DNA of 64,000 bases, taken from assembly GCA_028291945.1 (NCBI GenBank), contig JAQGNH010000247.1:392-64391 (forward strand), in the 5' to 3' direction. The translations under genes and the position numbers were made by a program. The notes under the pieces are model-generated. The model was not told where the DNA came from. It saw only the letters and a list, made by a program, of their open reading frames with translations, and made no database searches. This document shows, piece after piece, positions 1-60,056 of this stretch; position 1 is the first letter of the stretch, and each line of letters begins with the position of its first letter. The stretch comes from Betaproteobacteria bacterium. Its GTDB lineage: Bacteria; Pseudomonadota; Gammaproteobacteria; Burkholderiales; SG8-41.

Positions 1-549
1 CTTGCCGCCTGCATCGAGCACGCAATCCACCACGAATGTCTTGACGGCATCGATACCATCGGCAGGCACCGCCATCTTGAGCCACGAGTTGTTCTCCGAC
101 CCGGACCCTTTCGGAATCATTTCGATCGACAGGGTTTCACTATCCTCGACGAAATCCAGATTGATAACCGGCACCCGCCTGCCCGAGGACGTATGCTGAT
201 TCTTCCGTGTTACGGGGTGCACGACAGATGAGCGCAGCGGATGCTCCTTGGTCGCTCGCTCACACCCCTTGATGATCGCCTGCTTGAGCTTGTAGCCATC
301 CACCTCGACACCACTGCCGATGGTGACGTTATAAATGGGGATCCCCGTGTCCTGACACAGCAGGTTCTGGTTCTCCTCGGCCACTTTGATGTTGCGGATC
401 ATCGTGCCGAGGATCGCTTTGCCGGTCGCGTCAGTCTCGGTTGCATCCAGGCGCTTGAATCCGTCCTTGATGTCCGGCGGCAACAGCTTCAGCGCGCGGA
501 TATAGAGCTCCTTGCATGCTTCTTCCACTTCTTTAAGATCGACTTTCAT
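1..549 (-). CDS. Fe-S hydro-lyase alpha-type subunit (class I fumarate hydratase / L-tartrate dehydratase family); 5' part only, runs off the window edge
   Basis: Absent from the ORF track because there is no stop in the window. Manual translation from ATG at 549: MKVDLKEVEEACKELYIRALKLLPPDIKDGFKRLDATETDATGKAILGTMIRNIKVAEENQNLLCQDTGIPIYNV...MIPKGSGSENNS. The CQDTG and KGxGSEN motifs are typical of this family. Confidence 0.8.
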   Translation of the reverse strand, partial: MKVDLKEVEEACKELYIRALKLLPPDIKDGFKRLDATETDATGKAILGTMIRNIKVAEENQNLLCQDTGIPIYNVTIGSGVEVDGYKLKQAIIKGCERATKEHPLRSSVVHPVTRKNQHTSSGRRVPVINLDFVEDSETLSIEMIPKGSGSENNSWLKMAVPADGIDAVKTFVVDCVLDAGGK

Positions 550-613: not shown

Positions 614-1483
614 CTACGATTGCATCCCCCATCTCCTCACGGTACGTTTTTCCACCGTTTGAAAAACGAGGTTTTCCACGATGAGGCCGATGATGATCAC
701 GGAAAACAGTCCCGCGAATACGTTGGCGATTTCCAGCTGGTTCTTGTTCTCGTAAATAAACCAGCCCAGTCCCCCTGTGCCCGAGGAGACGCCGAAAACG
801 AGCTCGGCTGCAATCAGCGTGCGCCACGCGAACGCCCACCCGATTTTCATTCCGGTCAGTATCGACGGAAACGCTGCAGGCATCAGGATTTGCGCGACGT
901 AGCGCGGGCCGGAGAGGCCATAGTTGCGGCCTACCATGCGCATGGTTTGGGAGACCGACAGGAATCCCGAGTGCGTGTTGAGCGCGACAGCCCATAGGAC
1001 CGAGTGAACAAGCACGAAGACGAGACTTGCGTTGCCCAGCCCGAACCAGATCAGCGCGAGCGGAAGCAGCGCAATCGCCGGCAGAGGGTTGAACATCGAC
1101 GTGAGCGTCTCGAGCAGATCGTTGCCAATACGCGAGGTAATCGCCAGGGCCGTGAGCAGCGCGGCCAGTGCCAGGCCGATCACATAGCCCTGCAGCAGCA
1201 CTTTGATCGAGAATCCTGCGCGCGTCAGGAGCACACCGTCCACAATTCCGGCGTAGAACGCAGCAAACGTCTCGCTGAATTTCGGAAAAAGCAACGGATT
1301 GTTCAGCGCCGTCGCGTAAATCTGCCAAGCAGCGGCCAACAACGCGAGCAGCACCGCTTTGCGCAGCGCGCCGTTGTGATAGAGCTTTTCCCACCGCGTA
1401 AGCGGCTTCTCCACGACGCCGTACGCATCCGCTACCACTTCGCGCACGAATTCCGGACGTGAGAGGACGACGTTTTCAGCCAT
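614..1483 (-). CDS. ABC transporter permease, NitT/TauT (TauC/SsuC-like) family
   Basis: 300-aa ORF with multiple TM segments and a BPD-type permease core (…FNPLPAIALLPLALIWFGLG…GWAFAWRTLIAAELV…). The ATG at 1483 (MAENVV) overlaps the upstream ATPase stop by 8 nt; the longest ORF starts at 1516. Confidence 0.85.
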   Translation of the reverse strand: MAENVVLSRPEFVREVVADAYGVVEKPLTRWEKLYHNGALRKAVLLALLAAAWQIYATALNNPLLFPKFSETFAAFYAGIVDGVLLTRAGFSIKVLLQGYVIGLALAALLTALAITSRIGNDLLETLTSMFNPLPAIALLPLALIWFGLGNASLVFVLVHSVLWAVALNTHSGFLSVSQTMRMVGRNYGLSGPRYVAQILMPAAFPSILTGMKIGWAFAWRTLIAAELVFGVSSGTGGLGWFIYENKNQLEIANVFAGLFSVIIIGLIVENLVFQTVEKRTVRRWGMQS

Positions 1484-2267
1484 GGGCGACGGTCTCATGT
1501 TCGATCTCATCGGCAAAAAGCATGTGGTGTATGCGCTCTGAAAGCTTACGCCCGTCAGGCCCGGTTCTGTCCGTGCCGTCGCTGTTCATTTCGGCTTTGA
1601 CCTGGCCCGGATGAGGGCTCATCAGCAGAATGCGATTACCGACGAGCACCGCCTCCGGAATAGAATGGGTCACGAAGAGCACAGTGAAGCGCGTGTCCTC
1701 CCACAACTGCAGCAACTCTTCCTGCATCTTCTGGCGCGTCAGCGCATCGAGCGCCGCGAAGGGCTCGTCCATCAGCAGAATTGCAGGCTCCATCGCCATG
1801 CCGCGCGCGATGGCGACGCGCTGTTTCATGCCGCCCGAAAGCGTGTGAGGATAGCTGTCGGAGAACTTTGTCAGATTCACTTTGCCGATGTAGTGCATCG
1901 CGCGCTCTTCCGCCTCGCGGCCGTTCAACTTGCCGCTCGCCTTGAGTGCGAACATCACGTTCTGCTTCACCGTCTTCCAGGCTAGTAGTTGATCGAACTC
2001 CTGAAACACCATCACGCGGTCCGATCCCGGCTTGCGAATCTCGACACCGTTGAGCCGCATCGACCCCTCAACTGGAGGGAGGTAGCCGCCGACTGCTTTG
2101 AGCAGGGTCGACTTGCCACAGCCCGAAGGGCCGAGTATCACGAAGCGATCGGACCGGTAGACGTCGAAGTCCACGCGGTACGTCGCCGTCACGAGATGAT
2201 CCTTCGTTTTGTACTGCAGCGTAACGCGGCGCACCTCGAGGAGCGGCTGCGATGCAGTGATGTTCAT
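1476..2267 (-). CDS. ABC transporter ATP-binding protein, NitT/TauT (TauB/SsuB-like) family
   Basis: Walker A GPSGCGKST, signature LSGGMKQRVAIARG, Walker B LLMDEPFAALD, H-loop VTHS. Confidence 0.92.
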   Translation of the reverse strand: MNITASQPLLEVRRVTLQYKTKDHLVTATYRVDFDVYRSDRFVILGPSGCGKSTLLKAVGGYLPPVEGSMRLNGVEIRKPGSDRVMVFQEFDQLLAWKTVKQNVMFALKASGKLNGREAEERAMHYIGKVNLTKFSDSYPHTLSGGMKQRVAIARGMAMEPAILLMDEPFAALDALTRQKMQEELLQLWEDTRFTVLFVTHSIPEAVLVGNRILLMSPHPGQVKAEMNSDGTDRTGPDGRKLSERIHHMLFADEIEHETVAHG

Positions 2268-2287
2268 CGGTAGGCTGCGCGCCGGTT

Positions 2288-3250
2288 CTACTCGACTTGC
2301 AATTTGCGCTCACGCACGATCTTCGCCCAGCGCACCGACTCTTCCTTGATTGCACGCGCAAAAACATCGGGCTCATTGCCGACCGGGACCATCCCGATCT
2401 GCGCGAAACGCGTGCGGATGTCCGGCGCGTTCAGCGCCCTTGCAGTGTCCTGATAAAGCTTGCTGATGATGTTTTTCGGTGTACCCGCAGGCACCATGAA
2501 TCCGAACCAGCCGATGTTCTCGAACCCTGGCAGTGTTTCGGCAGCGGCCGGTACGTCCGGCAGTTGCTGAACGCGCTCTTTGCTCGTCACGGCGAGGGCC
2601 CGAAGTTTTCCCTGCTGCACGAAGCCGATCGCCGCAGCGAGGTTGGGCGTCACCATATTGATCTGACCGCCAACGAGATCGGTAAGCGCGGGGGCTTCAC
2701 CTTTATACGGTACATGCACGACTTCTATTCCGGCGGTGTAAAGAAAGTTTTCCGCGGCCAGGTGCGTTTGCGTTGCTACACCTGCGGATCCGTACGTGTA
2801 GCCTTTCGGCTTCGCTTTGGCGGCTGCTATGAAATCCTTCAGGGTCTTCGCCGGAAAGCTCGGATGCACGACGATCGCCTGCGGTCCGCTTGCAACGTTC
2901 GTCACCGCGACGAGATCTTTCTCGGGATTGAAAGGCATTGTCCTGAAGATGTACGGATTCGCAGCGACGATCGAGCCGGAGGTCATAAAAAGCGTGTATC
3001 CATCGGAGGTCGATTTGGCGGCGATATCGCCGCCGATGTTTCCGCCAGCCCCCGCCCGATTGTCTACGACCACGGTCTGGCCCCAGATTTCCGTGAGCTT
3101 CTGTGCGACGAGGCGCGTCACGATATCGGTCGCGCCGCCGGGCGAGAACGGAACGATCACGCGAACGGGATGCGCTGGGTACGCCTGCGCCGACGCAAAC
3201 TCAGCGCTAATCAACGCGCCGATCAGCAGTAGCCACTTCAACGATTTCAT
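2288..3250 (-). CDS. Bug-family (TctC-like, tripartite tricarboxylate transporter) periplasmic substrate-binding protein
   Basis: Start at MKSLKWLLLIGALISAEFASAQAYPAHPVRVIVPFSPGGATD, with GGAGG 5 nt upstream. Signal peptide plus the canonical Bug N-terminus. The track ORF runs on to 3472, which is a spurious 5' extension. Confidence 0.9.
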   Translation of the reverse strand: MKSLKWLLLIGALISAEFASAQAYPAHPVRVIVPFSPGGATDIVTRLVAQKLTEIWGQTVVVDNRAGAGGNIGGDIAAKSTSDGYTLFMTSGSIVAANPYIFRTMPFNPEKDLVAVTNVASGPQAIVVHPSFPAKTLKDFIAAAKAKPKGYTYGSAGVATQTHLAAENFLYTAGIEVVHVPYKGEAPALTDLVGGQINMVTPNLAAAIGFVQQGKLRALAVTSKERVQQLPDVPAAAETLPGFENIGWFGFMVPAGTPKNIISKLYQDTARALNAPDIRTRFAQIGMVPVGNEPDVFARAIKEESVRWAKIVRERKLQVE

Positions 3251-3341: not shown

Positions 3342-4718
3342 TTACAATCCGAGCGCGTCCGCAGTGAGCTTCCGCAGCTCGCGCTGCAATCGTGCCCGCA
3401 CTGCACGATACGCAGGCCGCTTGTTAACGTTGGTGATCTCGTATGGATCTTTGTCGAGATCGTAGAGCTCATCCAGCTCGCCGTTGCGACTGCGGTTGAC
3501 CCAATGTATGTACTTATGCCGCTCCGTGCGTACTGACTTGTACGTCATGCCCACGAGCCACGGATACGCGTTCTCGGCCCAGTATTCGAGAAGTATCGAC
3601 TTGCGCCAGCCGCCGCGCTTTCCCGAAAAGAGCGGCAGTAACGAGCGGCCCTGTACGTGTTGCCCGGGCTTGCCACCGGCGAGCTGGATCAGCGTCGGCG
3701 CAATATCCTGGCACAGCACCAGATTTTTCGAGCGCGACCCGGCCTTGATGCGTCTGGGATAGCGCACTGTAAACGGCGCGCGTATCCCTTCTTCATACGC
3801 AAACCGACGCTCGGGTCCCAATCCGTGCTCTCCGAAAAAATAGCCGTTGTCGCCAAGAAAGAAGATGATCGTGTTGTCCAACTCCCCTTTGGCTTCGAGC
3901 GCGTCGAACAACATGCCCACGCCTTCATCGACGGACGCCATCATGGCGGCGCGCAGTCTGATTTCCTCCTGCTCGCCAGCGTGAATCGCGTCCAGGAGTG
4001 CGCGAGACTCTTTGGACTTCTTGAGCTCGAGCGCTTCCGCCCACGCCGGTTTCTGCTTCACGATCTCGGCCTCCGGCAGCATGTTCGGCTTCTTCGGGAA
4101 CACACAGTTCCGGTAGAGGTCCTTATGGCGCTCCGCGACGACATACCCGTCCATCTTGAATGTGCCATCGGCCGCCTGCTCCGCGTCCGGATGAACCGCC
4201 TTGTGTGCAAAAAAGAGTGACCACGGCTTGGCGTGCTTGCGGTTCAAGAACTCGACCGCCATCTCGTTCATGATGTCCGTGATATAGCCCTGCCGCTGCA
4301 CGTAGGTACCGTTCTCGTTCAATCGTGGATCGTTGAGCCGGCCGTGCCCATCGTACGCGACCCAGTAGTCGTAGCCGGGTCGCGGCTTACCGTCATTGCC
4401 CATGTGCCACTTGCCGATGTGCGCCGTTTCATAGCCGAGACGCTGCAGCTCGAGGTGATAGTTGGGAAGCCTGTGACTCGCCTGATCGCGCGCGACGTTA
4501 TCGATGATCCCGTGGCGGCTCGCGTATTGCCCTGTCAGGATCGACGCGCGGTTAGGCGAGCATATCGGCGTCGTGTGAAACGCGCGCTCGAACAGCATGC
4601 CTTCGTTTGCAATGCGGTCGATGTTCGGCGTTTTCATATACGGATGACCGCCCGCGCCGAACTCGTCGTAGCGCAGATCGTCGATGAGAATGACCAGAAT
4701 GTTGGGCTTCGTTGCCAA
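3342..4718 (-). CDS. Sulfatase (S1 formylglycine type); no recognisable signal peptide
   Basis: MATKPNILVILIDDLRYD…TPICSPNRASILTG contains the C-x-P-x-R formylglycine motif. The family core GKWH… and …FLGDNGYFFGEHG are also present. Confidence 0.9.
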   Translation of the reverse strand: MATKPNILVILIDDLRYDEFGAGGHPYMKTPNIDRIANEGMLFERAFHTTPICSPNRASILTGQYASRHGIIDNVARDQASHRLPNYHLELQRLGYETAHIGKWHMGNDGKPRPGYDYWVAYDGHGRLNDPRLNENGTYVQRQGYITDIMNEMAVEFLNRKHAKPWSLFFAHKAVHPDAEQAADGTFKMDGYVVAERHKDLYRNCVFPKKPNMLPEAEIVKQKPAWAEALELKKSKESRALLDAIHAGEQEEIRLRAAMMASVDEGVGMLFDALEAKGELDNTIIFFLGDNGYFFGEHGLGPERRFAYEEGIRAPFTVRYPRRIKAGSRSKNLVLCQDIAPTLIQLAGGKPGQHVQGRSLLPLFSGKRGGWRKSILLEYWAENAYPWLVGMTYKSVRTERHKYIHWVNRSRNGELDELYDLDKDPYEITNVNKRPAYRAVRARLQRELRKLTADALGL

Positions 4719-4806: not shown

Positions 4807-5166
4807 CTACAAAAGATTCAGGAGAAACGCGAGGCCAAACGCTAGACTCAACGCAGTGGCTACCGCGATCAGAGTCTTCTGCCACTCGCGCCAGGCAAGG
4901 AACTCCAGCATGAGGAGCCGCACGCCGCCGGCCATGTGGGCCGCGAGCAATACTACCAGGCCCACCTCCGCGATTTTGACCAGAGGCTGATCGGTCCAGC
5001 GCAAAAACGATTCGAGGCGCGCTTCACCTTGAAGCGCTTGCGCCAACGCCCAGAAGTGCAGAGGCAGGAAGACCGTGAGGAGTACGCCCGAAACGCGGTG
5101 AACGGCGAACGCCCAGTACGCAGGATGATTGCGGGCGCGAAAGTCGTTACGCACGCATCGCCTCAA
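4807..5166 (-). CDS. Succinate dehydrogenase/fumarate reductase membrane anchor, SdhC (cytochrome b)-like
   Basis: …AFAVHRVSGVLLTVFLPLHFW… (HRxSG motif), three TM helices. Start uncertain: TTG at 5166 overlaps the upstream TGA, and GTG at 5154 is the alternative. The 5' part of the track ORF up to 5259 overlaps the previous gene. Confidence 0.6.
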   Translation of the reverse strand: MRRCVRNDFRARNHPAYWAFAVHRVSGVLLTVFLPLHFWALAQALQGEARLESFLRWTDQPLVKIAEVGLVVLLAAHMAGGVRLLMLEFLAWREWQKTLIAVATALSLAFGLAFLLNLL

Positions 5167-5568: not shown

Positions 5569-6294
5569 CTAAATTTCGCCTTTCAGGGCGGCGCTTAGAA
5601 CCGCTCGCTTGAGGCCCGCGATGCCTGCAGTAGGCGAGAGTTTCTTGGGGCAGCGCTCGGTGCAGGTCATCTGTGTATGGCACGCATGACAACCCGCATC
5701 GCCAGCAACGGCCGTGAGACGCTCGCGCTGATCGACGTCTCTTACGTCGTTCACAAGCGTCCAGGCACGTGTCAGAGCGGCAGGGCCCAGATAATCCGGT
5801 TTCCAGGTGACGACGTCGCACGAGCTGTAGCAGACCCCGCAGCCGATGCATTCGATCGACTCATCGACGAGCCTGCGCTGGCGCGACTCCGGGGACACGC
5901 GCGCGAAATCGTCGTTACGGGTGGCGCTTCCGCGAAACTGCCCTTTGGCGGCCGCCCACTTGTCGAAGAACGGCGCCATGTCCGTGACAAGATCCTTGAT
6001 GACGGGCAGGTTGCGAAGCGGTCCGATCTCAAGTCGTTCTTCGTCAGAGACGCTCGCCACGTGCGTGCGGCAGGTCCAGCGCGCTTTGCCGTTGACGGTC
6101 ATTGCGCACGAGCCGCACATGCCGACGCGGCACGCAAAACGATATGAGAGCGTCGGATCGAGCTTGCGCTGAATGTGGGTGACCACATCGAGCACCGTCT
6201 GGCTTTCCAGCCGCGGAACCTGGAACTCTTGATATTCGCCGGACTCGGTGCCGCGCCAGACTCGGACGTGGAGCACGCTCAATGCCGTGCCCAT
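5569..6294 (-). CDS. Succinate dehydrogenase/fumarate reductase iron-sulfur subunit (SdhB/FrdB family)
   Basis: 2Fe-2S motif CRVGMCGSC plus two Cys clusters, CIGCGVCYSSC and CHACHTQMTCTERCP. 241 aa. Confidence 0.85.
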   Translation of the reverse strand: MGTALSVLHVRVWRGTESGEYQEFQVPRLESQTVLDVVTHIQRKLDPTLSYRFACRVGMCGSCAMTVNGKARWTCRTHVASVSDEERLEIGPLRNLPVIKDLVTDMAPFFDKWAAAKGQFRGSATRNDDFARVSPESRQRRLVDESIECIGCGVCYSSCDVVTWKPDYLGPAALTRAWTLVNDVRDVDQRERLTAVAGDAGCHACHTQMTCTERCPKKLSPTAGIAGLKRAVLSAALKGEI

Positions 6295-6609: not shown

Positions 6610-7788
6610 TTACGCCGACTCGTACAACCGCGTCAGCACGAACTCACGGTGCCCCAGGGCCTCGGCCGCGGTCAGACGCCCGTTGCACGTGCGCAGCATG
6701 ATTTGAATCAGCTCATCTCCAGTCTGCTCCAGATTCTTCTGACGCTGCAGAAGCCCGGAACAATCGTAGTCGACGTGCTCGGACATCGTGCGGACCGTGC
6801 GTGGGTTCGCGCACAGCTTGATGACCGGGAGTATCGGGTTGCCGATCACGTTGCCTTGTCCCGTCGGGAAGAAATGCACGACGTAACCCGACGCTGCACA
6901 GAGCGTGACCATCTCAGCGGCGGCGGACGAGGAATCCATGAACCACAACCCCGGACGCGTCGGCATTTCCGCTTTGTCGAGAACGCCGATCACCTTGCAC
7001 TTCTTGCCGATTTTCTGAATGTTGCCGAGCGCTTTCTCTTCGATGGTCGTCAGGCCGCCTGCAATATTGCCTTTAGTCGGCTGCGATTCGGACAGGTCGT
7101 TCGTCTTGTTGCGCTCGACGATTTCCTGATAGCGGTTGAACATTTTCATGAACTGCTCGCGCACTTCAGGGGTCGCGCACCGGTCGGCCACTATATTCTC
7201 GCCGCCGGTGATTTCGGTCGTCTCGCCGAAGCACATCGTCACGCCGAGTGGCTCGAGCTTGTCGAAGGCGCTGCCCACCGTTGGGTTCGAGCCGCAACCC
7301 GATGTCGTGTCCGATTCACCGCACTTGGTGGATACCCATAGATCGCTGATCGGACAATCTTCCGTGCGAAGCTCCGACGCCCACTGCAGGTACTCTTTCG
7401 CCACTTTGGACGCACGCATGATGGTGTCGTGATCGCCGTGGAGCTCGATCCCGAAACCCGTCACGGGCTTCCCTGTCTTTGCTATCGCGTCGACGATGCG
7501 CTTGGTCCAGCCTTCCTCGATGCCGATGACGATCACGGCAGCCACGTTGGGATTGGACCCAGCGCCGATCAGCGTGCGAAAGTGAAGATCGAGATCGGCT
7601 CCGAACTGCAGGCGTCCGTACGGGTGAGGAATCGCCATCGCGCCTTTGATGTTATGCGCGACCGCTTCGCACGCTGAGTTCGACAGATCATCGACCGGCA
7701 GAACAATCACGTGATTGCGTATACCCACCCGCCCGTTTTCTCGCCGGTAACCACGGAAAGTCGTATTGCTGTTGATCATGGGATTCAT
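6610..7788 (-). CDS. UxaA-family dehydratase large subunit (altronate dehydratase C-terminal type; SuyB-like)
   Basis: 392 aa, with …[23 protein letters not shown]…[21 protein letters not shown]…TEITGGE… typical of UxaA/GarD C-terminal domains. Encoded separately from the SAF domain. Confidence 0.85.
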
Positions 7789-7796: not shown

Positions 7797-8078
7797 TTAC
7801 CAGCGCTTGGTCTTGATGTTGTGGACGTGCGCGTGCTCGCCCGTCTTGATATCGGAAACGGCTTTGCCGATGTCAAAGCCGTATTTGATGATGGTGTCGC
7901 CCTTCTTGATTTCCCTGGTGGCAACTTTGTGTCCAATGGGCACATCGTTCATCGCTTTCACCTTGATCGTGGAGTCGTCCTCCATGACCCAGCCGATCAG
8001 TTCCTGACCGGCCTTGATGCCTTCGATCACGGCCACGCCGACCGTGTCTTTCTTGTCGTGCACGAGTATGTGAATCAT
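7797..8078 (-). CDS. UxaA-family small subunit (SAF domain; SuyA-like)
   Basis: 93 aa, …[15 protein letters not shown]…[22 protein letters not shown]… is a SAF-domain pattern. Lies 8 nt upstream of the large subunit. Confidence 0.8.
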
Positions 8079-8152
8079 CTTGCGTCTCCTTGGACGTACG
8101 CCGTTTGCGTACCGGGAAGATGGGACGGTGTTGTTCTTTTTGTGTGGGCGAC

Positions 8153-8181
8153 ATCGTATCGGCAGTTGGTAGTCAAGTCAA
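8153..8181 (-). promoter_or_regulatory. Putative sigma70 promoter of the SAF/UxaA operon, overlapping a repeat that may be the GntR operator
   Basis: Minus-sense TTGACT, 17 nt, TACGAT. The -35 lies in a TTGACTTGACT direct repeat and in the inverted repeat AGTTG…CAACT (8163-8184). Confidence 0.35.
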
Positions 8182-8252
8182 CTATATGACCTATATGAAT
8201 CGGTTGGGCGGTGCTACAATCGATCGTTGCATTTACGGAACGGCGCCGCCAG

Positions 8253-9011
8253 ATGGCTGACACGCTTGCCGCGGGGAGCCTCACTTTCAACCCGCTCTAT
8301 AAGGAAGTCAAGATACGCCTCACGCGCGGGCTCGCCGGCGGCGAGTGGAAGCCCGGCGACGCGATTCCCAGCGAAACGCGGCTGGCAGAGCGGTTCAATG
8401 TGTCGATCGGCACGATACGCAAAGCGATAGACGAGCTCGTCGCTGAACGCATTCTTCTGCGCCAGCAGGGTCGCGGGACGTTCGTAGCGACTCACACTGA
8501 AGACCGCACGCTCTTCTACTTCTTTCATATCGTCGGCAAGGACGGAAGCAGAGAGCTGCCCGTCACCGAACTGCTCTCCTTTCGGAAGGCGCGTGCGAGC
8601 GCCGTTGAAGAAGAACGTCTGCGACTCGCTCGGGGCGCACCGACTTTTCGCATCCAGAACGTGCTGAAGCTCGGAGGCAAGCCCGTGGTCTTCGACGAAA
8701 TCACGTTGCCAGCAGAGCTTTTCCCAGATCTCGATGAGCTGGTGTTCGGCGGCCGGGAAGGCACGATCTACGGCCTCTACCAAGCTCGCTACGCCATCAG
8801 CGTGCTGCGCATCAGCGAGCGCTTGTCTGCTGCGCATCCGTCAGCGCGCGCTGCTTCGTTGCTCGAGCTCGCGCCCGACACGTGCGCACTCGTGATCAAC
8901 CGTGTCGCATATACCTATGACGACACGCCCGTCGAATATCGGCTGAGTTGGGTGAACACCGAGCGCCACGAGTATTTGAGCGATCTCTGGAAGAACGATG
9001 GACCGAAATGA
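8253..9011 (+). CDS. GntR-family transcriptional regulator (HutC/UTRA subfamily)
   Basis: wHTH …LPSETRLAERFNVSIGTIRKAIDELVAERILLRQQGRGTFV, followed by a UTRA-like C-terminal domain. ATG at 8253; the track ORF starts at 8211. Confidence 0.85.
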   Translation: MADTLAAGSLTFNPLYKEVKIRLTRGLAGGEWKPGDAIPSETRLAERFNVSIGTIRKAIDELVAERILLRQQGRGTFVATHTEDRTLFYFFHIVGKDGSRELPVTELLSFRKARASAVEEERLRLARGAPTFRIQNVLKLGGKPVVFDEITLPAELFPDLDELVFGGREGTIYGLYQARYAISVLRISERLSAAHPSARAASLLELAPDTCALVINRVAYTYDDTPVEYRLSWVNTERHEYLSDLWKNDGPK

Positions 9012-9147
9012 TCGTGTCGAATGCGTGATACTCAAAGACTACACATGCCGCCAGTAATGGCACGATCAGTTGTTCGCTCGAACATTCCGGCGCAACCTTT
9101 CAAGCTGCAGTGACCTTCCGGCCTGAGTCGAAGCGCTGAGCCGCGGC

Positions 9148-10848
9148 TCATAAGCGACGCAACCCGCGGCGTGCAGCCTCGACGAGAGCGGGATCTTTCG
9201 CGTTTTTTAGGAGCCACTCGAATTGAGCGCGCGCGTCGTTTTTGAGGCCGGCGCGCGTCAGATTGACGCCCGCAAGCAGGCGCCCCTGCGATGCTAGCGG
9301 ATCGGAGGCGCCGCTTTGCGCGAGCAGCGCTGACCTGAGGTAGGAGTCCGCAGCCGCTAGCGAATCGCCTTTGAGCTCCTGCGTACGAGCAAGGCCAAAG
9401 AGCGCTTCACGCGCGCGGTTTTCGGGCGCAGTCGGAATCAGAAGCGCAAAAACCGTTTGCGCAGCGTCGAGCGCACGCAGATCGAGCATTTCCTGCGCAA
9501 CGTCCAGTATGCTTTGTGCAAGCTCCGCCGATGTAGCTGTGCGACCGGCGAGCAGCCGCTCGATCGTGCTTGCGCTGGCTTCGGCTTTTCCAGCTTGAAG
9601 GGCCGTCCGGGCAAGCGTCAGTTCCCACTCTGCAGCGTTTACCGTCGCAGGCGCCGCGAGCCCGTCCCACAGCTTCAGCGCCAATGCCGACTCATTGCGT
9701 TTCGCCGCCATCGTGCCCAGCACGTAGCGCGTTTGCGCGTCGAGCGCTTCAGCTTCGAATCCCGGACGTTGCACAAGCCGCAACGCGGTGTAATCCAGTC
9801 CCGTTGTCGACAGCGAAGCCGCGAGTTGCAGCTGGGCGTTGTGGCGGGTATCTGCATTTTGCGCACGTTGTGCGAGGAAGCCATAGAACGCGCGCGACAG
9901 AAAGGGATCCGACCCCAGCCGTCGCGCCGCGTAATCCGCCCAGGCACCGTCGTCGCCCATCAGCAACTGCTCGCGATTGCCGATCTCGCTTGCGGTGTCG
10001 AGGTACCCCTGCCACAAACGCTGGGCGCCAGCCGAGACCGCCGCTTCGTTTCGTGCATCCGCGCTTTGCAACAGGCGTTCGAGCGCTTCGACGTGCAGTG
10101 AGCCATTGCCGCTTCGAACTGCTGCTTCGTCTATTGCCCGCCAATAAGCGGGATCCGGATTGCGTGCCAGTGCCGCGCGCGCCTGCTTGATTACCGCTTC
10201 GGGCGATAACACTCCACCGCGCAGATTCAGTCTCAGCCGGGTTGCAGTGACCTCGTCAGTTCGCCCAAGCCAATTCACCGCGTCCCGCTCCTGGGCGAGG
10301 TCGAGCAGCGCATCGGCAAAACGGTCAGCCACAGCGCGATCAAGCGGCTGATAGTCCTGCTGATAGCGCAGCATGCTGCGAAAAGCATCTTCACCGCGGC
10401 GCTCAGCGATAAAGCTTTCGATGGCGATGACGCGCACCGCCTTCACTTCGGCGGGCGTAGCGCTCGTTTGCCACAGGACACGGGCCGCATGCTTACGTGC
10501 GATTTGGGGGCTGTTCTGAACGATGGCCGCCCGGGCCGCTTCGATGAAGCAGGCAGTAAGCGGGGCGGCCGTTGCCGGTAGCGCCTCCACGCGCTGCAGC
10601 AAGTCAGCCGGCCGCTTCAAATGCGCCAGCACTTCGCAGCGCAAACCTTCCCATTCTGCCCACGCGGCGGTAGCCCCATCGGAGGGCTGCAGCGCTTCGA
10701 TGCGGGTCAGCGCCAATTCGGGCGCACCGGCATCCATCAGCCGCCGCGCGGCAGCAGTATCCTCGAGCGCTGCGGCTCGTGCGTCTGCTGCTAAAGTAAA
10801 AACGGCCGCGAATATTAGAAGAAACACTACGTGACTCAATCTCGTCAT
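9148..10848 (-). CDS. Hypothetical secreted Ala/Leu-rich helical-repeat (TPR-like) protein
   Basis: MTRLSHVVFLLIFAAVFTLAADARAAA looks like a signal peptide. The ~565-aa ORF has an Ala/Leu/Arg-rich helical composition. I recognise no catalytic motif. Confidence 0.55.
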   Translation of the reverse strand: MTRLSHVVFLLIFAAVFTLAADARAAALEDTAAARRLMDAGAPELALTRIEALQPSDGATAAWAEWEGLRCEVLAHLKRPADLLQRVEALPATAAPLTACFIEAARAAIVQNSPQIARKHAARVLWQTSATPAEVKAVRVIAIESFIAERRGEDAFRSMLRYQQDYQPLDRAVADRFADALLDLAQERDAVNWLGRTDEVTATRLRLNLRGGVLSPEAVIKQARAALARNPDPAYWRAIDEAAVRSGNGSLHVEALERLLQSADARNEAAVSAGAQRLWQGYLDTASEIGNREQLLMGDDGAWADYAARRLGSDPFLSRAFYGFLAQRAQNADTRHNAQLQLAASLSTTGLDYTALRLVQRPGFEAEALDAQTRYVLGTMAAKRNESALALKLWDGLAAPATVNAAEWELTLARTALQAGKAEASASTIERLLAGRTATSAELAQSILDVAQEMLDLRALDAAQTVFALLIPTAPENRAREALFGLARTQELKGDSLAAADSYLRSALLAQSGASDPLASQGRLLAGVNLTRAGLKNDARAQFEWLLKNAKDPALVEAARRGLRRL

Positions 10849-10957
10849 GTTTTGCCGACTCCTTTGAGTTTTCACTTGCTGCACCACATCCCAGCTACGC
10901 GTTTACTTTGTGACGGCGTCACCGCATCAACTTCAACATTTCATCGCTCATCGTGTC

Positions 10958-10988
10958 AAAAAAAAAGCGGCGCTCGGCCGCTTTTTTT
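10958..10988. terminator. Bidirectional rho-independent terminator downstream of rplS
   Basis: A9-GCGGC-gctcg-GCCGC-T7. The stem is flanked by an A-run and a T-run. Confidence 0.7.
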
Positions 10989-11007
10989 GCGCTGTGCGGG
11001 GCGGTCC

Positions 11008-11397
11008 CTACTGCGGAGCGACCTCAGGCGAAGTGTCCACATGCACTTCGAGCTTTTCCTTGATGCGTGCCGCCTTGCCGGAGCGCTGGCGCAGGTAATA
11101 CAGCTTCGCACGCCCGACGTCGCCGCGGCGCTTCACCTCGACACTGGCGATCAGGGGAGAATACGTCTGGAAGGTACGCTCCACGCCTTCGCCCGACGAG
11201 ATCTTGCGCACGATGAACGAGGAGTTCAGGCCACGGTTGCGCTTGGCGATCACGACGCCTTCGTACGCCTGTACGCGTTTGCGATCGCCTTCGACAACGT
11301 TTACGTTAACCACGACGGTATCACCGGGCGCAAAGTCGGGGATGGTCTTTCCGAGGCGCTGTATTTCTTCCTGCTCGAGCTGTTTGATGATGTCCAT
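11008..11397 (-). CDS. rplS: 50S ribosomal protein L19
   Basis: [11 protein letters not shown]…[46 protein letters not shown]. Confidence 0.97.
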
Positions 11398-11402
11398 TTT
11401 CG

Positions 11403-12155
11403 TTACTCCGCTTCCCTCTTGAATTCTTCGAGCAGCGAGCTTTCAGCTGCGCTGAGATTACGTTTCGCCAGCAAGTCGGGGCGACGGCACCAGGTCCGTC
11501 CGAGCGACTGCTTCAAGCGCCACCTTGCCACGTCCGCGTGATTGCCGGAAAGCAACACCGACGGTACCGCTGCGCCGTCATACAACTCGGGGCGCGTGTA
11601 GTGCGGATGATCCAGCAGCCCATTCGCAAACGAATCCTGAACCGCCGATTCGGCATCACCGAGCGCACCGGGCAGCTGGCGCACCACGCAGTCGATCACG
11701 ACCATCGCCGCCAGCTCACCACCAGATAACACGTAGTCGCCGATCGAAACTTCGTCATCGACGACGCGACCGACGAGGCGCTCATCAATGCCTTCGTAGC
11801 GCCCGGCCAGCATGACCAACCCCTGTTCCCCCGCAAGCTCTCTCACGAGCTGGTTGTCGAGCAGGCGGCCCTGCGGCGTCAAATGCAGCACGCGTGGCTT
11901 GCTTACGCCGCTGCTCTTCTGTCGCTGACGCGCTGCACCGAGCGCCTTCTCCAGCGGCTCCGGCATCATCACCATGCCAGGTCCACCGCCGTAGGGACGA
12001 TCATCGATCGTCCGGTAACTGTTCGTCGCGAAATCGCGCGGATTCCACAACACCAACTCGTACAACCTGCGCTCTCTCGCCCGGCCGGTTACACCCGATC
12101 CGGTAACCGCATCGAACATCGCGGGGAACAGCGTCACGACGTCGAACTGCAACAT
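11403..12155 (-). CDS. trmD: tRNA (guanine37-N1)-methyltransferase
   Basis: [18 protein letters not shown]…[14 protein letters not shown]…[16 protein letters not shown]. Confidence 0.95.
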
Positions 12156-12712
12156 CAGTAATCACTGCCCCAGTCCACCCGGATCACACGACCAGCCACG
12201 TCGACCCGCTTTACGACCTGCTCGGTGAACGGAATCAGACGCTCGCGATCACCTTCAACGACCAACACATCGTTCGCGCCGGTTTCGACGACCTGGGACA
12301 CCACACCAAGGTCTTCGCCATCCATATTTACCACGTTAAGACCGATCAGATCGGCCCAGTAAAATTCATTTTCCGCGGGAGCGGGAAGCGCTTCGCGCGG
12401 CACTGCAACTTCACGTCCCCGAAACAAGGCTGCCGCATCGCGCTCTTCGCACCCGGCGAGCTTCGCGACCACCGAGCCGCTCTGCTCCTTGGCGAGCTCA
12501 ATACAATGTTCCTGCCAACCTACTGCATTTCCAACCCACCACCGCGGATACGCAAGCAGATTTCCGGGCTCGCCCGTAAAGGGCTGAATCTTTATCCAGC
12601 CGCGAATGCCAAACGCGCCGGTGATCCGCCCCATCACCACCAGATCTGCTGGTGGATTCGTGCTCTTACTGTCAGGCGGCTTGCTGCTTACCAAGCTCTT
12701 GCTGCTTACCAA
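12155..12712 (-). CDS. rimM: Ribosome maturation factor RimM
   Basis: …[19 protein letters not shown]…, PRC-barrel C-terminus. Start uncertain: TTG at 12712 or 12694 (both inside the rpsP repeat), or ATG at 12634. Confidence 0.88.
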
Positions 12713-12944
12713 GCTGTTTCACAAGACGAGCCGCGGTAGCGGAAAGTATTGCACCCTGACCCTGCCAGTGCGCGAGACGCTCGCGATTGATGCGCAACGA
12801 TTCGTTACCCGCAGGCGCTTTGGGATTATAAAAACCGAGGCGCTCGATGAAACGCCCGTCTCGCGCGCGGCGCGAATCCGCTACAACGAGATTGAAGAAT
12901 GGCCGCTTCTTGGCGCCACCGCGAGCTAGGCGAATTACAACCAT
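12672..12944 (-). CDS. rpsP: 30S ribosomal protein S16
   Basis: [41 protein letters not shown]. Confidence 0.96.
12680..12715. repeat. Perfect 18-bp tandem duplication (x2) in the rpsP 3' end and rimM 5' overlap
   Basis: cttgctgcttaccaagct occurs at 12680-12697 and again at 12698-12715. It encodes [12 protein letters not shown] in rpsP. Confidence 0.9.
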
Positions 12945-13124
12945 GGGGGATCTGCCGTTTGGAAATCGAAAGGCCGTGATTTTACGATGATTTTCGCCTG
13001 CCGCGCAATCTAAAAAGGGGGCGGGGTGAAGTTCAAACGGCTGGAACAGGGTCGCATTTCAACCCGGGTGCCCAGGCGCGAGGCCCGGGGGGCACAATCC
13101 GAGGTTTTCAGGAGTTGAGTTCGC

Positions 13125-13979
13125 ATGACTACGAGCGACGCAGACGTACCAGCAGAACGTGTCCGAGCCGCGGTTTCCGAACGGTTCGGCACGCAGTTAG
13201 CCTTTCCTGCCGAAACCCATGGACTCGAGAAGCTCGTCGAGATCGTCGAGCATCGTTCCCACCGCAGCTATACCAATGCGCCCATCGCTCCCGAACTGCT
13301 TCGTCTGCTGTTCGCATGTGCGTTGTCGGCGCCCTCGAAATCGGATCTCCAGCAAGCCGACATCGTGCACGTCGCCGACCGCGACAAAGTTGAGGCGATC
13401 ACGAAACTGATCCCGGATATGCCTTGGATAAGCAAGGCGCCGGTCCTGCTCATCTTCTGCGGAAATAACCGTCGCATCCGCCAGATTGGTGAATGGCGCG
13501 GAAAGCCTTTCGCGAATGACCACCTCGACCACTTCATGAACTCAGCGGTGGACGCCGGCATCGTGATGACGACGTTCATACGTGCGGCTGAAGCCGTGGG
13601 GCTCGGCGCGTGTCCGATCAGCGCCATACGCAACTGCCCTCATGAAGTGAGCCGTCTTCTGGAGCTGCCCGACTGGGTATTTCCTGTAGCCGCTTTGACT
13701 GTGGGCTTTCCGGATCACTCCGGGCATATTACGCTGCGGCTCCCGCTCGACGTCACGGTACACGAGAACCGCTACGACGAATCACGCGCCAAGGAAAACA
13801 TCGAGCGCTATGACCGCCGACGTCACGAAACACAACCCTATCGCAAGCAGCGCCATGTAAAGCGTTACGGCCAATCGGAGTTCTACGGTTGGTCCGAAGA
13901 CAAAGCGCGGCAGTATTCGGTACCGGAGCGCGCGGACTTTGGTGCGTTCATACAGGCGAAGGGGTTCAGGTTGGATTGA
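13125..13979 (+). CDS. Nitroreductase-family NAD(P)H oxidoreductase (NfsA-like)
   Basis: …HRSHRSYTNAPI…LSAPSKSDLQQADIVHV… and the later …GLGACPISAIRN. Confidence 0.8.
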   Translation: MTTSDADVPAERVRAAVSERFGTQLAFPAETHGLEKLVEIVEHRSHRSYTNAPIAPELLRLLFACALSAPSKSDLQQADIVHVADRDKVEAITKLIPDMPWISKAPVLLIFCGNNRRIRQIGEWRGKPFANDHLDHFMNSAVDAGIVMTTFIRAAEAVGLGACPISAIRNCPHEVSRLLELPDWVFPVAALTVGFPDHSGHITLRLPLDVTVHENRYDESRAKENIERYDRRRHETQPYRKQRHVKRYGQSEFYGWSEDKARQYSVPERADFGAFIQAKGFRLD

Positions 13980-14119
13980 ATCAGTCAGCCGTGCTCATGC
14001 CGTGAGCGATGGGAAGCCCGGTGCATGCGTGGTGCGTGGAGTCCCACAGAAGCTTGAAATAACGCGACCGCTTTTTGCGCTGACACGGCTGAGCGGTGCC
14101 GACTGAGGCTGATGTATCT

Positions 14120-15472
14120 TCAGCGCATCCCCGGAAACATGCCTTTCATGGACCGCATCATCTTCTGCAGGCCGCCTTTGGCAACCATTTTCATCATCTT
14201 CTGTGTCTGCTCGAACTGATTGAGCAGGCGATTGACTTCCTGCACGGACACGCCCGCGCCCGTCGCAATTCGCCGTTTGCGCGAGGCCTTGATCAGCTCC
14301 GGCTTCGCGCGCTCTTTGCGCGTCATCGAATTGATGATGCCTTCGATGCGGCGTATCGACTTATCGTCGACCTGTTGCGCGCCTTGTGCCATTTGTGCAA
14401 GATTTCCCGGCAGCTTGTCCATGAGCGCAGACACTCCGCCCATTTTTTTCATCTGCACGATCTGCTGCTTGAAATCCTCCAGATCGAAGCCTTTGCCCGT
14501 TTTGACTTTGTGCGCGAGCTTTTCCGCTTCCTTGCGATCGACGTTTTTTTGCACATCCTCGATCAGCGTCAGCACATCCCCCATCCCGAGGATGCGTGAG
14601 GCCATGCGGTCGGGGTGAAACGCTTCGAGACCGCTCAACTTCTCTCCAACGCCAGCGAACTTAATCGGTTTGCCGGTGACGTGGCGGACCGAGAGCGCCG
14701 CACCGCCTCGTGCATCTCCATCAAGCTTCGTCAGCACTACGCCGGTGAGCGGCAGTGCCTCAGAGAAAGCGCGTGCGACGTTTACCGCATCCTGACCCTG
14801 CATCGCGTCGACCACGAAGAGCGTTTCAATCGGCTTCAACGCGTCGTGCAGATCGCGGATTTCCCGCATCATCACTTCATCGATTGCGAGGCGGCCCGCA
14901 GTATCGACAATGAGCACGTCGTTGTAGTGACGACGCGCGTGATCGAGCGCGCGCGTGGCGATGTCCACAGGCTTTTCCCCCGCCGACGAAGGAAAGAAAT
15001 CGACCTGCACCTGGGCTGCGAGCGTCTCCAATTGCTTGATGGCAGCCGGACGATAGACGTCGGCACTGACCAGCAGCACCTTTTTCTTATGTTGCTCCTT
15101 GAGCCATTTGGCAAGCTTGCCGCTGGTAGTGGTTTTTCCGCTGCCTTGCAGTCCCGCCATGAGGACGACGGCCGGGGGGGTGGTCGCGAGATTCAGCGCA
15201 TCGTTGTGCTCACCCATCAGCGCAGCGAGCTCACGATGCACGACGCCGACAACTGCCTGACCCGGCGTGAGGCTGCCTATTACGTCGGCTCCCAGCGCTT
15301 TCTCGCGTACGGCTGCGATAAAGTCGCGCACGACCGGAAGAGCGACGTCGGCTTCGAGCAACGCCATGCGCACTTCGCGCAGCGCATCTTTGATATTGTC
15401 TTCGGTGATTCGGGCTTCGCCGCGCAGCGTTTTTAGCACGTGCGTGAGGCGGGTCGTGAGACTGTCGAACAT
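14120..15472 (-). CDS. ffh: Signal recognition particle protein Ffh
   Basis: True start MFDSLTTRLTHVLKTLRG at 15472. GTPase motifs GLQGSGKTTT, DTAGR, TKLDGD. M-domain near the C-terminus. The track ORF carries an 80-aa spurious extension. Confidence 0.97.
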   Translation of the reverse strand: MFDSLTTRLTHVLKTLRGEARITEDNIKDALREVRMALLEADVALPVVRDFIAAVREKALGADVIGSLTPGQAVVGVVHRELAALMGEHNDALNLATTPPAVVLMAGLQGSGKTTTSGKLAKWLKEQHKKKVLLVSADVYRPAAIKQLETLAAQVQVDFFPSSAGEKPVDIATRALDHARRHYNDVLIVDTAGRLAIDEVMMREIRDLHDALKPIETLFVVDAMQGQDAVNVARAFSEALPLTGVVLTKLDGDARGGAALSVRHVTGKPIKFAGVGEKLSGLEAFHPDRMASRILGMGDVLTLIEDVQKNVDRKEAEKLAHKVKTGKGFDLEDFKQQIVQMKKMGGVSALMDKLPGNLAQMAQGAQQVDDKSIRRIEGIINSMTRKERAKPELIKASRKRRIATGAGVSVQEVNRLLNQFEQTQKMMKMVAKGGLQKMMRSMKGMFPGMR

Positions 15473-56312: not shown

Positions 56313-57337
56313 GCGCGGCTCCGCACGCGGCGGGCTTTTTGCGCGCGCGGAGTTTTGGCCGGGTCCGATCCGCGTAAGCTGATTTCCCCACTATGCAGGC
56401 GCCGAACGGCCTCGCCGGTCTGAAAGAGCAGCGCACCGTCGTCGCCCACACCGAGCGCGAGTCCGCGTTCGACGCGGCCAGTCGGAAGCTTCACAGCGAC
56501 GCTCCGCCCCTGATGGACGTGATAGCGTTGCCACTCCTCACGCATCGGAGCAAATCCGTCTTCGGCAAAGCGGTCAAGCACGATTGCCAGTTGGGCAAGC
56601 ACTGTTCCGAGCACTGCGCTTCGATCGAGCGTTCGCCCGCACGCTGCTTCGAGATCGGCGGCTGGCTGATCGATGCGGCTTTTCACTGCGTTCGACAAGC
56701 GTACGTTGACTCCGATTCCAATGACGACCGTGCTCGGGCCCAAGGCGTCGCCCTGCATTTCTATAAGCATTCCGGCGAGCTTCTGACCACGCCACACCAC
56801 ATCATTCGGCCATTTCAGACGCGCTTCATCGGTACCGAGCTTCTTTAGCGCGCGGATGAGCGCGACGCCAGCGGCGAGGCTCAACCCGCCCAGCGCACCG
56901 GCCCCGAGATCGAACCGCCACAGGGCGGAAAACGTCAACGCCCCGCCCACCCCTGCGTGCCACGGTCGGCCCATGCGCCCCCTGCCGTCGCGCTGACACT
57001 CGGCCGCGATCACCGTGCCACTCGGAGCCCCATGTGCAGCACGCTGCATGAGCAGCGTATTGGTCGAATCCACCGCATCGAGGAGCTCGATCGCCCAGCG
57101 TTGTGAGTAGGCCCCGGCGTGAGCCGCGACGGTTGCGTGATCGAGCAACGAGATCGGCTCGGCCAGTCGGTACCCGCGGCCCCTCACTTTGTAGACGCTG
57201 AGGCCGGCAGCATCGATCGCACGTACTGCGTTCCAGACCGTGCCGCGAGAAACGCCGAGCGTGCGCGCAAGCGTTGCGCCCGAGTGGAACTCGCCATCAG
57301 CCAGGCGCCGCAAAACGTCGAAAGAGAGATCCGTCAT
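56309..57337 (-). CDS. birA: Bifunctional biotin--[acetyl-CoA-carboxylase] ligase / repressor BirA
   Basis: Start MTDLSFDVLRRLADGEFHSG (wHTH) at 57337. …GRGRMGRPW… ligase motif. The track ORF has a 57-aa spurious extension. Confidence 0.92.
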   Translation of the reverse strand: MTDLSFDVLRRLADGEFHSGATLARTLGVSRGTVWNAVRAIDAAGLSVYKVRGRGYRLAEPISLLDHATVAAHAGAYSQRWAIELLDAVDSTNTLLMQRAAHGAPSGTVIAAECQRDGRGRMGRPWHAGVGGALTFSALWRFDLGAGALGGLSLAAGVALIRALKKLGTDEARLKWPNDVVWRGQKLAGMLIEMQGDALGPSTVVIGIGVNVRLSNAVKSRIDQPAADLEAACGRTLDRSAVLGTVLAQLAIVLDRFAEDGFAPMREEWQRYHVHQGRSVAVKLPTGRVERGLALGVGDDGALLFQTGEAVRRLHSGEISLRGSDPAKTPRAQKARRVRSRA

Positions 57338-57387
57338 CGGGATATAGAATAGCCGATAGCGCATACGCACAGCACGGAGGACAACCG

Positions 57388-58362
57388 ATGAGCAGGCATG
57401 CCCTGTTCGCGCTCGCTTTGGGCGCAACATTGGCGACGACATCATTCGGAGTCGCCGCGCAGGCGAAGTATCCGTCGAGGCCTCTTCGAGTGATCGTCCC
57501 GTACACACCCGGTGGAATCACCGACGTCGCGACGCGCATGGTCACACAGGAGCTTACGAAGAGCCTGAGGCAGAACGTGATCGTCGACAACCGGCCCGGC
57601 GCCAACAGCATCGTAGGCGTGGAAACGGTAGCGAAAGCAACGCCGGATGGGTATACAGTCGCTTCCGTTATCGCGGCGCATGCCGCCAATCAGACGCTGT
57701 ACGCGAAGCTGCCTTACGACTCGATCAAAAGTTTCGCGCCCGTGTCGCTGCTGGTTACGGCGCCACTCATCGTCTGCGTGACCAATTCGCTGCCCGTCAA
57801 ATCCGCAAAAGAGCTCGTCGAGCTTGCCAGAGCGAAACCCGGCCAGCTCACTTTCGCATCGAGCGGCGTGGGCGCAGCCGCTCATCTCACCACCGAGCTT
57901 CTGATGCTCACGACGGGAATAAAAATGGTTCATGTCCCGTACAAAGGCACGGCACCCGCATTGCTCGACCTCACGGGCGGCCAGGTCTCGGTAATGATGG
58001 ACACGCCTGGATCCATGCTGCCTCACTCCAGGGCCGGCAAGATCAGGGCACTCGCTATGGCATCGGAAAAGCGGGTCGCGGTCGCGCCGGAGCTTCCGAC
58101 ACTCGTCGAGTCCGGCTTACCGGTCGTCGGCGGCACCTGGGTGGGCATACTTGCACCCGCCGGAACGCCAAGAGAAATCGTGAATTTCCTGAGCGCGCAG
58201 ATGCAGGCCGCAGTACGCAAACAGGATCTGCGCGAGCGCTTCCTGCAGCTCGGCATCGACCCGGCGGGGACCAGCGCTGACGAATTCGCTAAATTCCTGA
58301 AGCAAGAAGTCGACAAGTGGGGGAAAGTGATACGGGCGGCGAATGTGAAAGTCGAGGGGTGA
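57388..58362 (+). CDS. Bug-family (TctC-like) periplasmic substrate-binding protein
   Basis: MSRHALFALALGATLATTSFGVAAQAKYPSRPLRVIVPYTPGG. GGAGGA lies 6 nt upstream. Confidence 0.9.
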   Translation: MSRHALFALALGATLATTSFGVAAQAKYPSRPLRVIVPYTPGGITDVATRMVTQELTKSLRQNVIVDNRPGANSIVGVETVAKATPDGYTVASVIAAHAANQTLYAKLPYDSIKSFAPVSLLVTAPLIVCVTNSLPVKSAKELVELARAKPGQLTFASSGVGAAAHLTTELLMLTTGIKMVHVPYKGTAPALLDLTGGQVSVMMDTPGSMLPHSRAGKIRALAMASEKRVAVAPELPTLVESGLPVVGGTWVGILAPAGTPREIVNFLSAQMQAAVRKQDLRERFLQLGIDPAGTSADEFAKFLKQEVDKWGKVIRAANVKVEG

Positions 58363-58491
58363 ACTTCTCGTATGCGGTAAGCCGAAAGCCAAGTCTTCTG
58401 AAAACCTCATCCATCTGCGCGTTCGGGCCCTAAGCATGTATGTGCGCTCCACGGGTCCAATCCTCATAGCAACCGATGCAACGATCAATAT

Positions 58492-60002: not shown

Positions 60003-60056
60003 TTGTTTGTCCGTCAGGGTGAGCCTCCGGTAGCAGCACTGCTACTCCGCAAAGCC

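Follow-up and report, generated by a model that had tools for sequence, protein, structure and literature searches.

A Bug/TctC-family binding protein gene in the binding-protein slot of a NitT/TauT-type ABC transporter gene cluster in Burkholderiales

Which transporter does a periplasmic receptor serve when its gene directly precedes those of an importer from another transporter class? This question is raised by a minus-strand gene array near one end of a 64,000-nucleotide stretch of DNA (hereafter the window) from Betaproteobacteria bacterium (Burkholderiales; SG8-41; GenBank assembly GCA_028291945.1, contig JAQGNH010000247.1, positions 392 to 64,391 of the forward strand). There, a sulfatase gene is followed by a gene for a solute-binding protein (SBP) of the Bug/TctC family, the receptor type of the tripartite tricarboxylate transporters (TTT), then by the ATPase and permease genes of a NitT/TauT-type ATP-binding cassette (ABC) importer and by a fumarase-like gene. 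In the lineage of the window, the Bug gene has displaced an NMT1-type SBP gene in situ; the resulting Bug-ATPase-permease array is conserved, the ABC pair is under functional constraint, and Bug is independent of this pair in most relatives. The account that we favour, and that we hold to be evenly poised between right and wrong, is that Bug is the resident orphan TTT receptor of the cluster and uses a distal TctAB, and that the ABC pair provides an additional, accessory route of uptake, having lost its own SBP gene to displacement and relying on an NMT1-type SBP that would be encoded elsewhere.

The gene order, the coordinates and both junctions of the array are exactly as the initial annotation had described them. 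The Bug gene (3250-2288, minus strand) has the sequence GGAGGA 6 nt 5' of its ATG and encodes 320 aa, a length shared with its homologues, beginning with a signal peptide (MKSLKWLLLIGALISAEFASA) that ends ASA/QA. Its stop is separated by 20 nt from the start of the ATPase gene (2267-1476, minus strand), which in turn shares an 8-nt overlap (ATGGCTGA) with the permease gene (1483-614, minus strand). The 20-nt spacer tagAACCGGCGCGCAGCCTACCGatg (window positions 2268-2287, and likewise at the junctions of the related loci L114 and L004) holds no recognisable Shine-Dalgarno sequence, whereas that of Bug is strong, which suggests that translation of the ATPase is coupled to that of Bug. A promoter and terminator scan returned counts at shuffle expectation, with no convincing terminator within the array, and, judging from its layout, Bug is probably co-transcribed with the ATPase-permease pair downstream.

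That the binding protein is of the Bug/TctC rather than the NMT1 type, as had been proposed, is borne out by its match to PF03401 (TctC, E=4e-76), which covers 273 of 274 profile positions, and by its closest solved structures, BugE (E=9e-75), Bug27, TBP, TphC, and AdpC; more than 100 homologues share 72-94% identity with it. The ATPase (PF00005, E=8e-30) has a Walker A motif (GPSGCGKS), an LSGG signature, and a Walker B motif (ILLMDE). Its NCBIfam neighbours are TauB, NtrCD, and SaoA, all under their equivalog cut-offs, and even the best of them, TauB, scores only 206 bits against a cut-off of 357. The permease (PF00528, BPD_transp_1), with six predicted transmembrane (TM) helices, finds its best NCBIfam matches in SaoP, NtrB, TauC, and SsuC, again all under their cut-offs (for TauC, 86 bits vs 342), and its nearest solved chains are CmpB and NrtB (E ~4e-19). 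Since the TauB, TauC, SsuB, SsuC, and NtrB scores all fall under the equivalog cut-offs, the pair belongs to the NitT/TauT family and is not a TauABC equivalog; the earlier description of the operon as TauABC-like thus stands at the level of the family and fails at that of the equivalog. By annotation standards, the predicted substrate of the pair is not taurine, an alkanesulfonate, or nitrate.

Two sets of loci were compared with the window, namely those of 80 species-level genomes with close permease homologues (65-86%) and 27 metagenome loci found via Bug, complemented by several exact-protein look-ups (individual loci carry L numbers below). About 12 Burkholderiales species-level genomes or metagenome contigs carry the Bug-ATPase-permease triplet, with Bug identities down to 64% and a synonymous divergence (dS) above 1; the adjacency is not unique to the genome of the window, and the arrangement is more than chance. 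Directly upstream of the ATPase gene stands an NMT1_2-type SBP gene at 23 loci, an NMT1_2 gene followed by that of a pyridoxal-phosphate (PLP) enzyme resembling beta-hydroxyaspartate dehydratase at 20, and a TctC/Bug gene at 12, the last always on the same strand and with Bug-ATPase gaps of 20-38 nt, while NMT1 lies downstream of the permease at 7 loci. Cargo genes are a common insertion between the NMT1 gene and the ATPase, and cultured examples of the canonical NMT1 state are known from the megaplasmid of Ralstonia solanacearum (Ralstonia CP023017.1) and from pTAV3 of Paracoccus versutus. Between identical flanks, reaching from the cytochrome subunit to the fumarase gene, the slot is filled by NMT1 in L044, L046, L068, L081, and L101 and by Bug in the window, L114, L032-34, L036-37, L041-42, and L047. 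Because NMT1 and Bug thus stand in the same position between the same flanks, Bug occupies the SBP slot, and the claim that it sits in the place of TauA is literally true, as the sister clusters with these flanks hold an NMT1_2-type SBP there.

In a third state the ABC pair is missing and Bug is directly followed by the fumarase gene. Among the orthologous loci found via Bug, this arrangement is the commonest, with about 14 of 16, and its chromosomal location is unchanged, beside rpsP-rimM-trmD-rplS. How closely the states may be related is illustrated by L047 (Bug and ABC pair) and L115 (Bug only), which are collinear with 87-91% DNA identity and differ by clean insertions or deletions of TauE (785 nt) and of exactly the ATPase and permease genes (1,722 nt).

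One explanation of the slot replacement would be a cross-family hybrid, in which Bug docks on the NitT/TauT permease dimer as the SBP of the importer, possibly also serving TctAB, and has functionally replaced the NMT1 SBP. Such docking would fit a non-orthologous displacement that took place in situ in a conserved operon slot, the short same-strand spacing to the ATPase gene in about 12 genomes, and the presence of a different Bug paralogue (43% identical) at the same position in L045. The evidence from the proteins themselves points the other way. The premise here is that a switch to an SBP of another family should re-tool the periplasmic face of the permease, the topology of which was inferred from hydropathy and anchored on the cytoplasmic EAA-type loop. 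Only two permease residues (T68K and L212M) are specific to the Bug-state clade, as compared to three in a control clade, and of these T68K is shared by some NMT1-state sequences and L212M is cytoplasmic. The periplasmic loop P3 (SSG[ST]GGLGWFIYENKNQLEI) is invariant, with a motif identical to that of the NMT1-partnered relatives, and the divergence of the periplasmic loops between Bug and NMT1 states (0.28-0.33) is that of the NMT1-vs-NMT1 control (0.30). On the side of the receptor, no Bug column discriminates sequences with the ABC pair from those without it (10 vs 10 sequences, interleaved on the tree), and Bug remains intact in most of the relatives that lack the pair. Residues marking a new interface were thus searched for in both the permease and Bug, and essentially none were found.

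A further point against docking is that L033 and L045 carry an NMT1 gene within the same co-directional array (NMT1-enzymes-Bug-ATPase-permease); in L047, an NMT1 gene lies 4.4 kb downstream. These NMT1 genes, which in L033, L045, and L047 stand at a distance of 3-6 kb, are themselves ambiguous, since their products are only 46-51% identical to one another and to the canonical partners, which share 60-75% among themselves, and the L047 type persists in relatives without the ABC pair. Their resemblance to unrelated paralogues can be read in favour of a Bug-fed importer. It also led us to reject, as a general explanation, that they represent the displaced cognate SBP, given their low identity, the ABC-independence of the L047 type, and the lack of any such gene at the other Bug-state loci. 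Finally, the literature searched holds no documented TctC/Bug-ABC pairing and hence no precedent. The proposal of the initial annotation that Bug delivers substrate to the ABC importer is therefore unsupported, as about 14 of 16 Bug loci have no ABC pair, no Bug residue tracks its presence, and the permease loops are unchanged, and we regard it as unlikely.

The history of the pair is informative in this respect. In a neighbour-joining tree of ATPase and permease, all Bug-state pairs group together, with 90% bootstrap support for subclade A (9 genomes) and 12% for the union of the two subclades. A single switch from NMT1 to Bug was considered; with a union bootstrap of only 12%, one event is not established. 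Subclade A is uniformly Bug plus ABC, which may be counted in favour of the hybrid. The Bug tree recovers the same two subclades and nests the group of the window among Bug-only sequences, a topology according to which the ABC pair was lost several times or, as the less parsimonious option, re-gained. Within the Bug-state clade, at a dS of about 1, the ratio of non-synonymous to synonymous substitution rates (dN/dS) is 0.107 each for ATPase and permease, 0.110 for the fumarase gene, and 0.150 for Bug; the catalytic motifs of the ABC genes are all intact, and no frameshifts were seen. Together, the low ratio and the intact motifs indicate that the ABC pair is a working gene pair and not a relic. 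At least four lineages keep a pair so strongly constrained without an NMT1 gene in cis, which is, again, what an importer fed by Bug would be expected to show.

The same data bear on a different scenario, in which the cluster is in transition from ABC- to TTT-dependent uptake and the ABC pair, having lost its SBP gene, has ceased to import the substrate of the pathway and is heading for deletion. The three states can plausibly be arranged as such a series (NMT1 plus ABC, then Bug plus ABC, then Bug only), and the repeated independent losses of the ABC pair on the Bug tree, together with its recent clean deletion in L115 relative to L047, would fit. A decaying pair, however, should not evolve under a constraint comparable to that of the fumarase gene and tighter than that of Bug, nor keep its catalytic motifs, its reading frames, and constrained periplasmic loops, and a useless pair would not last so long. 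We therefore consider this scenario improbable.

As to the missing partners, a profile hidden Markov model built from 60 partner SBPs found no NMT1-type match in the 64-kb window, nor in L032 (±10 kb), L034, L036, L037, or L114. The window ends just past the start of the fumarase gene; in the related locus L114, no NMT1 gene occurs in the next 10 kb. Likewise, neither TctA (12 TM helices) nor TctB (4 TM helices) is encoded in the 64-kb window, in which all multi-TM open reading frames (ORFs) correspond to FtsW, MraY, PilC, and PilD, or in the ±10 kb Pfam tables of L001, L003, L114, L115, L123, and L124. The statement that no TctA, TctB, or other SBP gene is adjacent to the array accordingly holds up. 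ABC pairs of this subfamily without an SBP in cis are also found in four Methylobacterium species (L051, L055, L062, and L074), with neither NMT1 nor Bug within ±10 kb.

In the account that we favour, the catabolic operon, which is chromosomal, would have Bug as its resident and conserved periplasmic receptor, and Bug would hand its substrate to a TctAB membrane unit encoded elsewhere, as is thought for other orphan Bugs, for which the literature assumes distant shared membrane partners. The ATPase-permease pair would be an accessory module that only some members of this cluster family possess, namely a working importer with an unchanged docking face that presumably relies on an NMT1-type SBP encoded elsewhere in the genome. 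Instead of forming one hybrid transporter, Bug and the ABC pair may be expressed together and supply the pathway by two parallel routes of uptake. Several observations weigh against this account. The postulated remote NMT1 partner was never observed at any of the loci screened with the profile, the NMT1 proteins near L033, L045, and L047 are poor candidates for it, and the partner of Bug is equally unobserved, with no TctA or TctB near any of the loci inspected. The tight same-strand spacing and the exact replacement in the slot are what would be expected of a cognate SBP gene, and the NMT1-less ABC pair has long been retained under purifying selection. Moreover, the loop comparison rests on general knowledge of type I importers, as the SBP-docked state of the family is unsolved; the CmpBCD structure paper did not capture this state, and contact residues are thus not definable from a solved structure.

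Another scenario is that transport is not the primary role of Bug, which would instead serve as a periplasmic sensor or co-regulator, like BctC with the sensor kinase BctE, or as a chaperone for a periplasmic step, with the ABC pair carrying out transport by itself or together with another SBP. Participation of a TctC-family protein in signal transduction is known (Antoine et al., 2005), and a 2024 paper on Bug27 and Bug69 raises a signalling role for orphan Bugs. Yet the cluster is regulated by a GntR/UTRA protein, which is cytoplasmic, no gene for a sensor kinase stands in the vicinity, and in most relatives the cluster holds no gene related to uptake other than Bug, so that some Bug-dependent uptake route is needed. 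This makes the scenario very improbable in our view.

The locus represents a new operon variant made of known parts. With the orphan Bug/TctC receptors of Bordetella, Cupriavidus, and other Betaproteobacteria (TTT, TC 2.A.80), Bug shares the PF03401 domain, the signal peptide, a length of about 320 aa, and the lack of tctAB nearby, and, like the genes of AdpC and TphC, its gene is embedded in a catabolic cluster. It differs from these receptors in standing directly upstream of an ABC ATPase-permease pair that has no SBP gene of its own. The pair, for its part, resembles the NitT/TauT importers (TC 3.A.1.17; TauABC, SsuABC, NrtABCD, and CmpABCD) in the homology of ATPase and permease, in its single permease gene of the homodimeric type, in the ATPase/permease gene overlap, and in the SBP-ATPase-permease order, but has no NMT1-type SBP in the operon or within 64 kb, unlike its close relatives in Ralstonia (CP023017.1) and on pTAV3, which carry NMT1_2 SBPs. 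The presence of two classes of SBP-dependent transporters in a single catabolic cluster, where they presumably take up identical or related substrates, has a counterpart in Rhodopseudomonas palustris, where a review describes the TRAP (tripartite ATP-independent periplasmic) system TarPQM together with an ABC system; here, in contrast, each system is incomplete in cis, the TTT receptor lacking its membrane units and the ABC units their receptor.

To our knowledge, orphan Bug/TctC receptors number in the hundreds per genome, and which membrane proteins they partner with has been an open question since 2003. If Bug did dock on the ABC permease, this would be the first cross-class pairing of an SBP with a transporter, found in a clade of soil Burkholderiales, with one receptor feeding an ATP-driven importer and perhaps also TctAB, and it would partly answer what orphan Bugs dock to. 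The three states of the slot form a natural comparative series for one catabolic operon, including near-isogenic pairs in which the ABC module is the sole difference, and thereby make the question whether a TTT receptor can serve an ABC importer directly testable. Even if it does not, the series documents swaps of transporter class by in situ displacement of a binding-protein gene and flags an uncharacterised, widespread cluster, probably for the catabolism of organosulfonates or sulfate esters.

The enzymes of the operon offer clues to what is taken up. In the order of transcription, it encodes the two subunits of a split UxaA/GarD-superfamily enzyme, a succinate dehydrogenase/fumarate reductase (SDH/FRD)-like iron-sulfur (Fe-S) protein, two Sdh_cyt anchors, the sulfatase, Bug, ATPase, permease, and a two-subunit Fe-S hydro-lyase. 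A GntR/UTRA-family regulator gene (8211..9011, plus strand; Pfam GntR and UTRA), the position of which is kept in relatives, diverges from it. The first enzyme consists of a small SAF-domain subunit with SuyA-like architecture (7797..8078, minus strand; Pfam SAF and a weak NCBIfam match to the galactarate dehydratase N-terminus) and a large dehydratase or lyase subunit with SuyB-like architecture (6610..7788, minus strand; Pfam GD_AH_second and GD_AH_C), that is, of separate 93-aa SAF and 392-aa GD_AH genes. Such a heteromeric arrangement is described within the UxaA/GarD superfamily only for SuyAB (PMC6336799). The sole NCBIfam match of the split enzyme, in libraries that hold no SuyAB model, is galactarate dehydratase, far below the cut-off.

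Downstream follow the SDH/FRD-like Fe-S subunit (5569..6294, minus strand; Pfam Fer2_3 and Fer4 families; NCBIfam TIGR00384, 200 bits against a cut-off of 88) and two Sdh_cyt-type membrane anchors, both predicted from ORFs with orthologues in L111 and L114 that match PF01127 (5163..5504 and 4807..5154, minus strand; the start of the second is inferred from 115-aa orthologues). The sulfatase-family hydrolase (3342..4718, minus strand; Pfam Sulfatase and SGSH_C; PF00884, E=4e-50) is of the Cys type, with the C-x-P-x-R formylglycine motif present as CSPNR in the translation, and is predicted to be cytoplasmic, as it has no signal peptide; every NCBIfam equivalog falls under its cut-off, and no specific substrate class can thus be assigned. 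At the other end, the 5' part of the gene for the alpha subunit of the hydro-lyase, classified from its translation as of the class I fumarase or L-tartrate dehydratase type (1..549, minus strand), runs off the window. The full orthologue in L114, a relative that is 93-97% identical at the protein level, passes the cut-off of NF004885 'fumarate hydratase' (307.7 bits vs 276), and there the cluster continues with the beta subunit of the hydro-lyase, an SdhA-like flavoprotein, an Ldh_2 dehydrogenase (best match L-sulfolactate dehydrogenase, below cut-off), a cupin, a second TctC, and a 2-hydroxyacid dehydrogenase.

Among the recurrent companions in relatives are TauE (L003, L015, L032, L044, L046, L047, L081, and L124), Ldh_2, the split UxaA enzyme, a cytoplasmic sulfatase or a DUF3604/CehA-type metallohydrolase and, in Methylobacterium, sulfite-oxidase-like genes. 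Between the SDH-like anchors and the sulfatase, some clusters also hold a gene of the ComA family, resembling phosphosulfolactate synthase (L047 5845-6708; L115 2370-3179; L123 7785-8618), an unusual setting, in bacteria, for a family that is known from the synthesis of coenzyme M. Together, these companions indicate an organosulfonate or a sulfate-ester acid as substrate, and degradation of an anionic C3-C4 acid, either sulfonated or sulfated, is the probable function of the operon; the co-occurrence of TauE with the SuyAB-like enzyme is suggestive only. The closest known system is the SlcHFG/SuyAB sulfolactate pathway of Roseovarius nubinhibens and Chromohalobacter salexigens, in which uptake of sulfolactate by the TTT system SlcHFG is documented, and with which the cluster shares a TctC-type receptor beside a split UxaA-family enzyme, Ldh_2, TauE, and (in relatives) the ComA-like gene. 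It differs in lacking SlcFG (TctBA) and in its additional SDH-like complex, fumarase-like hydro-lyase, and sulfatase, and the likeness to SuyAB is one of architecture only. The tartrate-dehydratase-like hydro-lyase, the SDH-like complex and the PLP enzyme of the sister clusters suggest instead a C4 backbone, so that the substrate may be a C4 acid. As the sulfolactate-related families and the C4-acid enzymes point in different directions, a firm assignment of the substrate is not possible.

The cluster occupies a fixed site next to rpsP-rimM-trmD-rplS both in the window (9000-12800) and in the distant relatives L001, L003, L123, and L124, which marks it as vertically inherited, core-adjacent DNA and not as an island; beyond the cluster, the window consists of core chromosome (rplS-trmD-rimM, pil genes, secA, and the dcw cluster). 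Within the catabolic cluster, the genes for the ABC pair, TauE, the sulfatase, and the ComA-like protein are each present in some loci and absent from others. In subclade A (L032 5705-8161, L034, and L037), an 818-aa DUF3604 (CehA-McbA-type) metallohydrolase stands in place of the sulfatase directly upstream of Bug, a second non-orthologous swap, hinting that a hydrolytic de-esterification step is needed and that the enzyme performing it is exchangeable.

The ABC pairs of Methylobacterium (around 9178-14164), with a permease that is 70-71% identical, are followed by genes for a sulfite-oxidase-type molybdoenzyme, a small secreted protein, and a PF03601 (YeiH-family) membrane protein; from its gene content, this array looks like a sulfonate-to-sulfate module with a so far unmatched binding protein. 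On pTAV3 of Paracoccus versutus (L127, NZ_CP035286.1 646525-661370), genes for an SDH-like Fe-S protein, an anchor, a flavoprotein, a two-subunit fumarase-like enzyme, and YeiH are divergent from an ATPase-permease-SBP set of the same subfamily, which makes this strain a tractable cultured model for the pathway substrate.

Other Bug paralogues occur in the cluster family. In Bordetella genomosp. 2 and B. petrii (L098 and L100; about 8037-11900), an NMT1-ATPase-permease set is directly followed by a different Bug paralogue (36% identical), and in L044, L046, and L068 yet another (30%) comes after the SuyB-like gene; this variety implies that Bug genes were recruited several times independently. 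The window itself holds three more Bug/TctC paralogues, each 39-40% identical to the Bug of the array, at about 57.4-58.4 kb (plus strand), 60.06-61.07 kb (minus strand), and 61.2-62.2 kb (plus strand). They flank (57274-62202) a peptidase S51 gene and a gene for a 230-aa SBP_bac_11 (ModA-like) protein (59310-60002, minus strand), apparently without a signal peptide.

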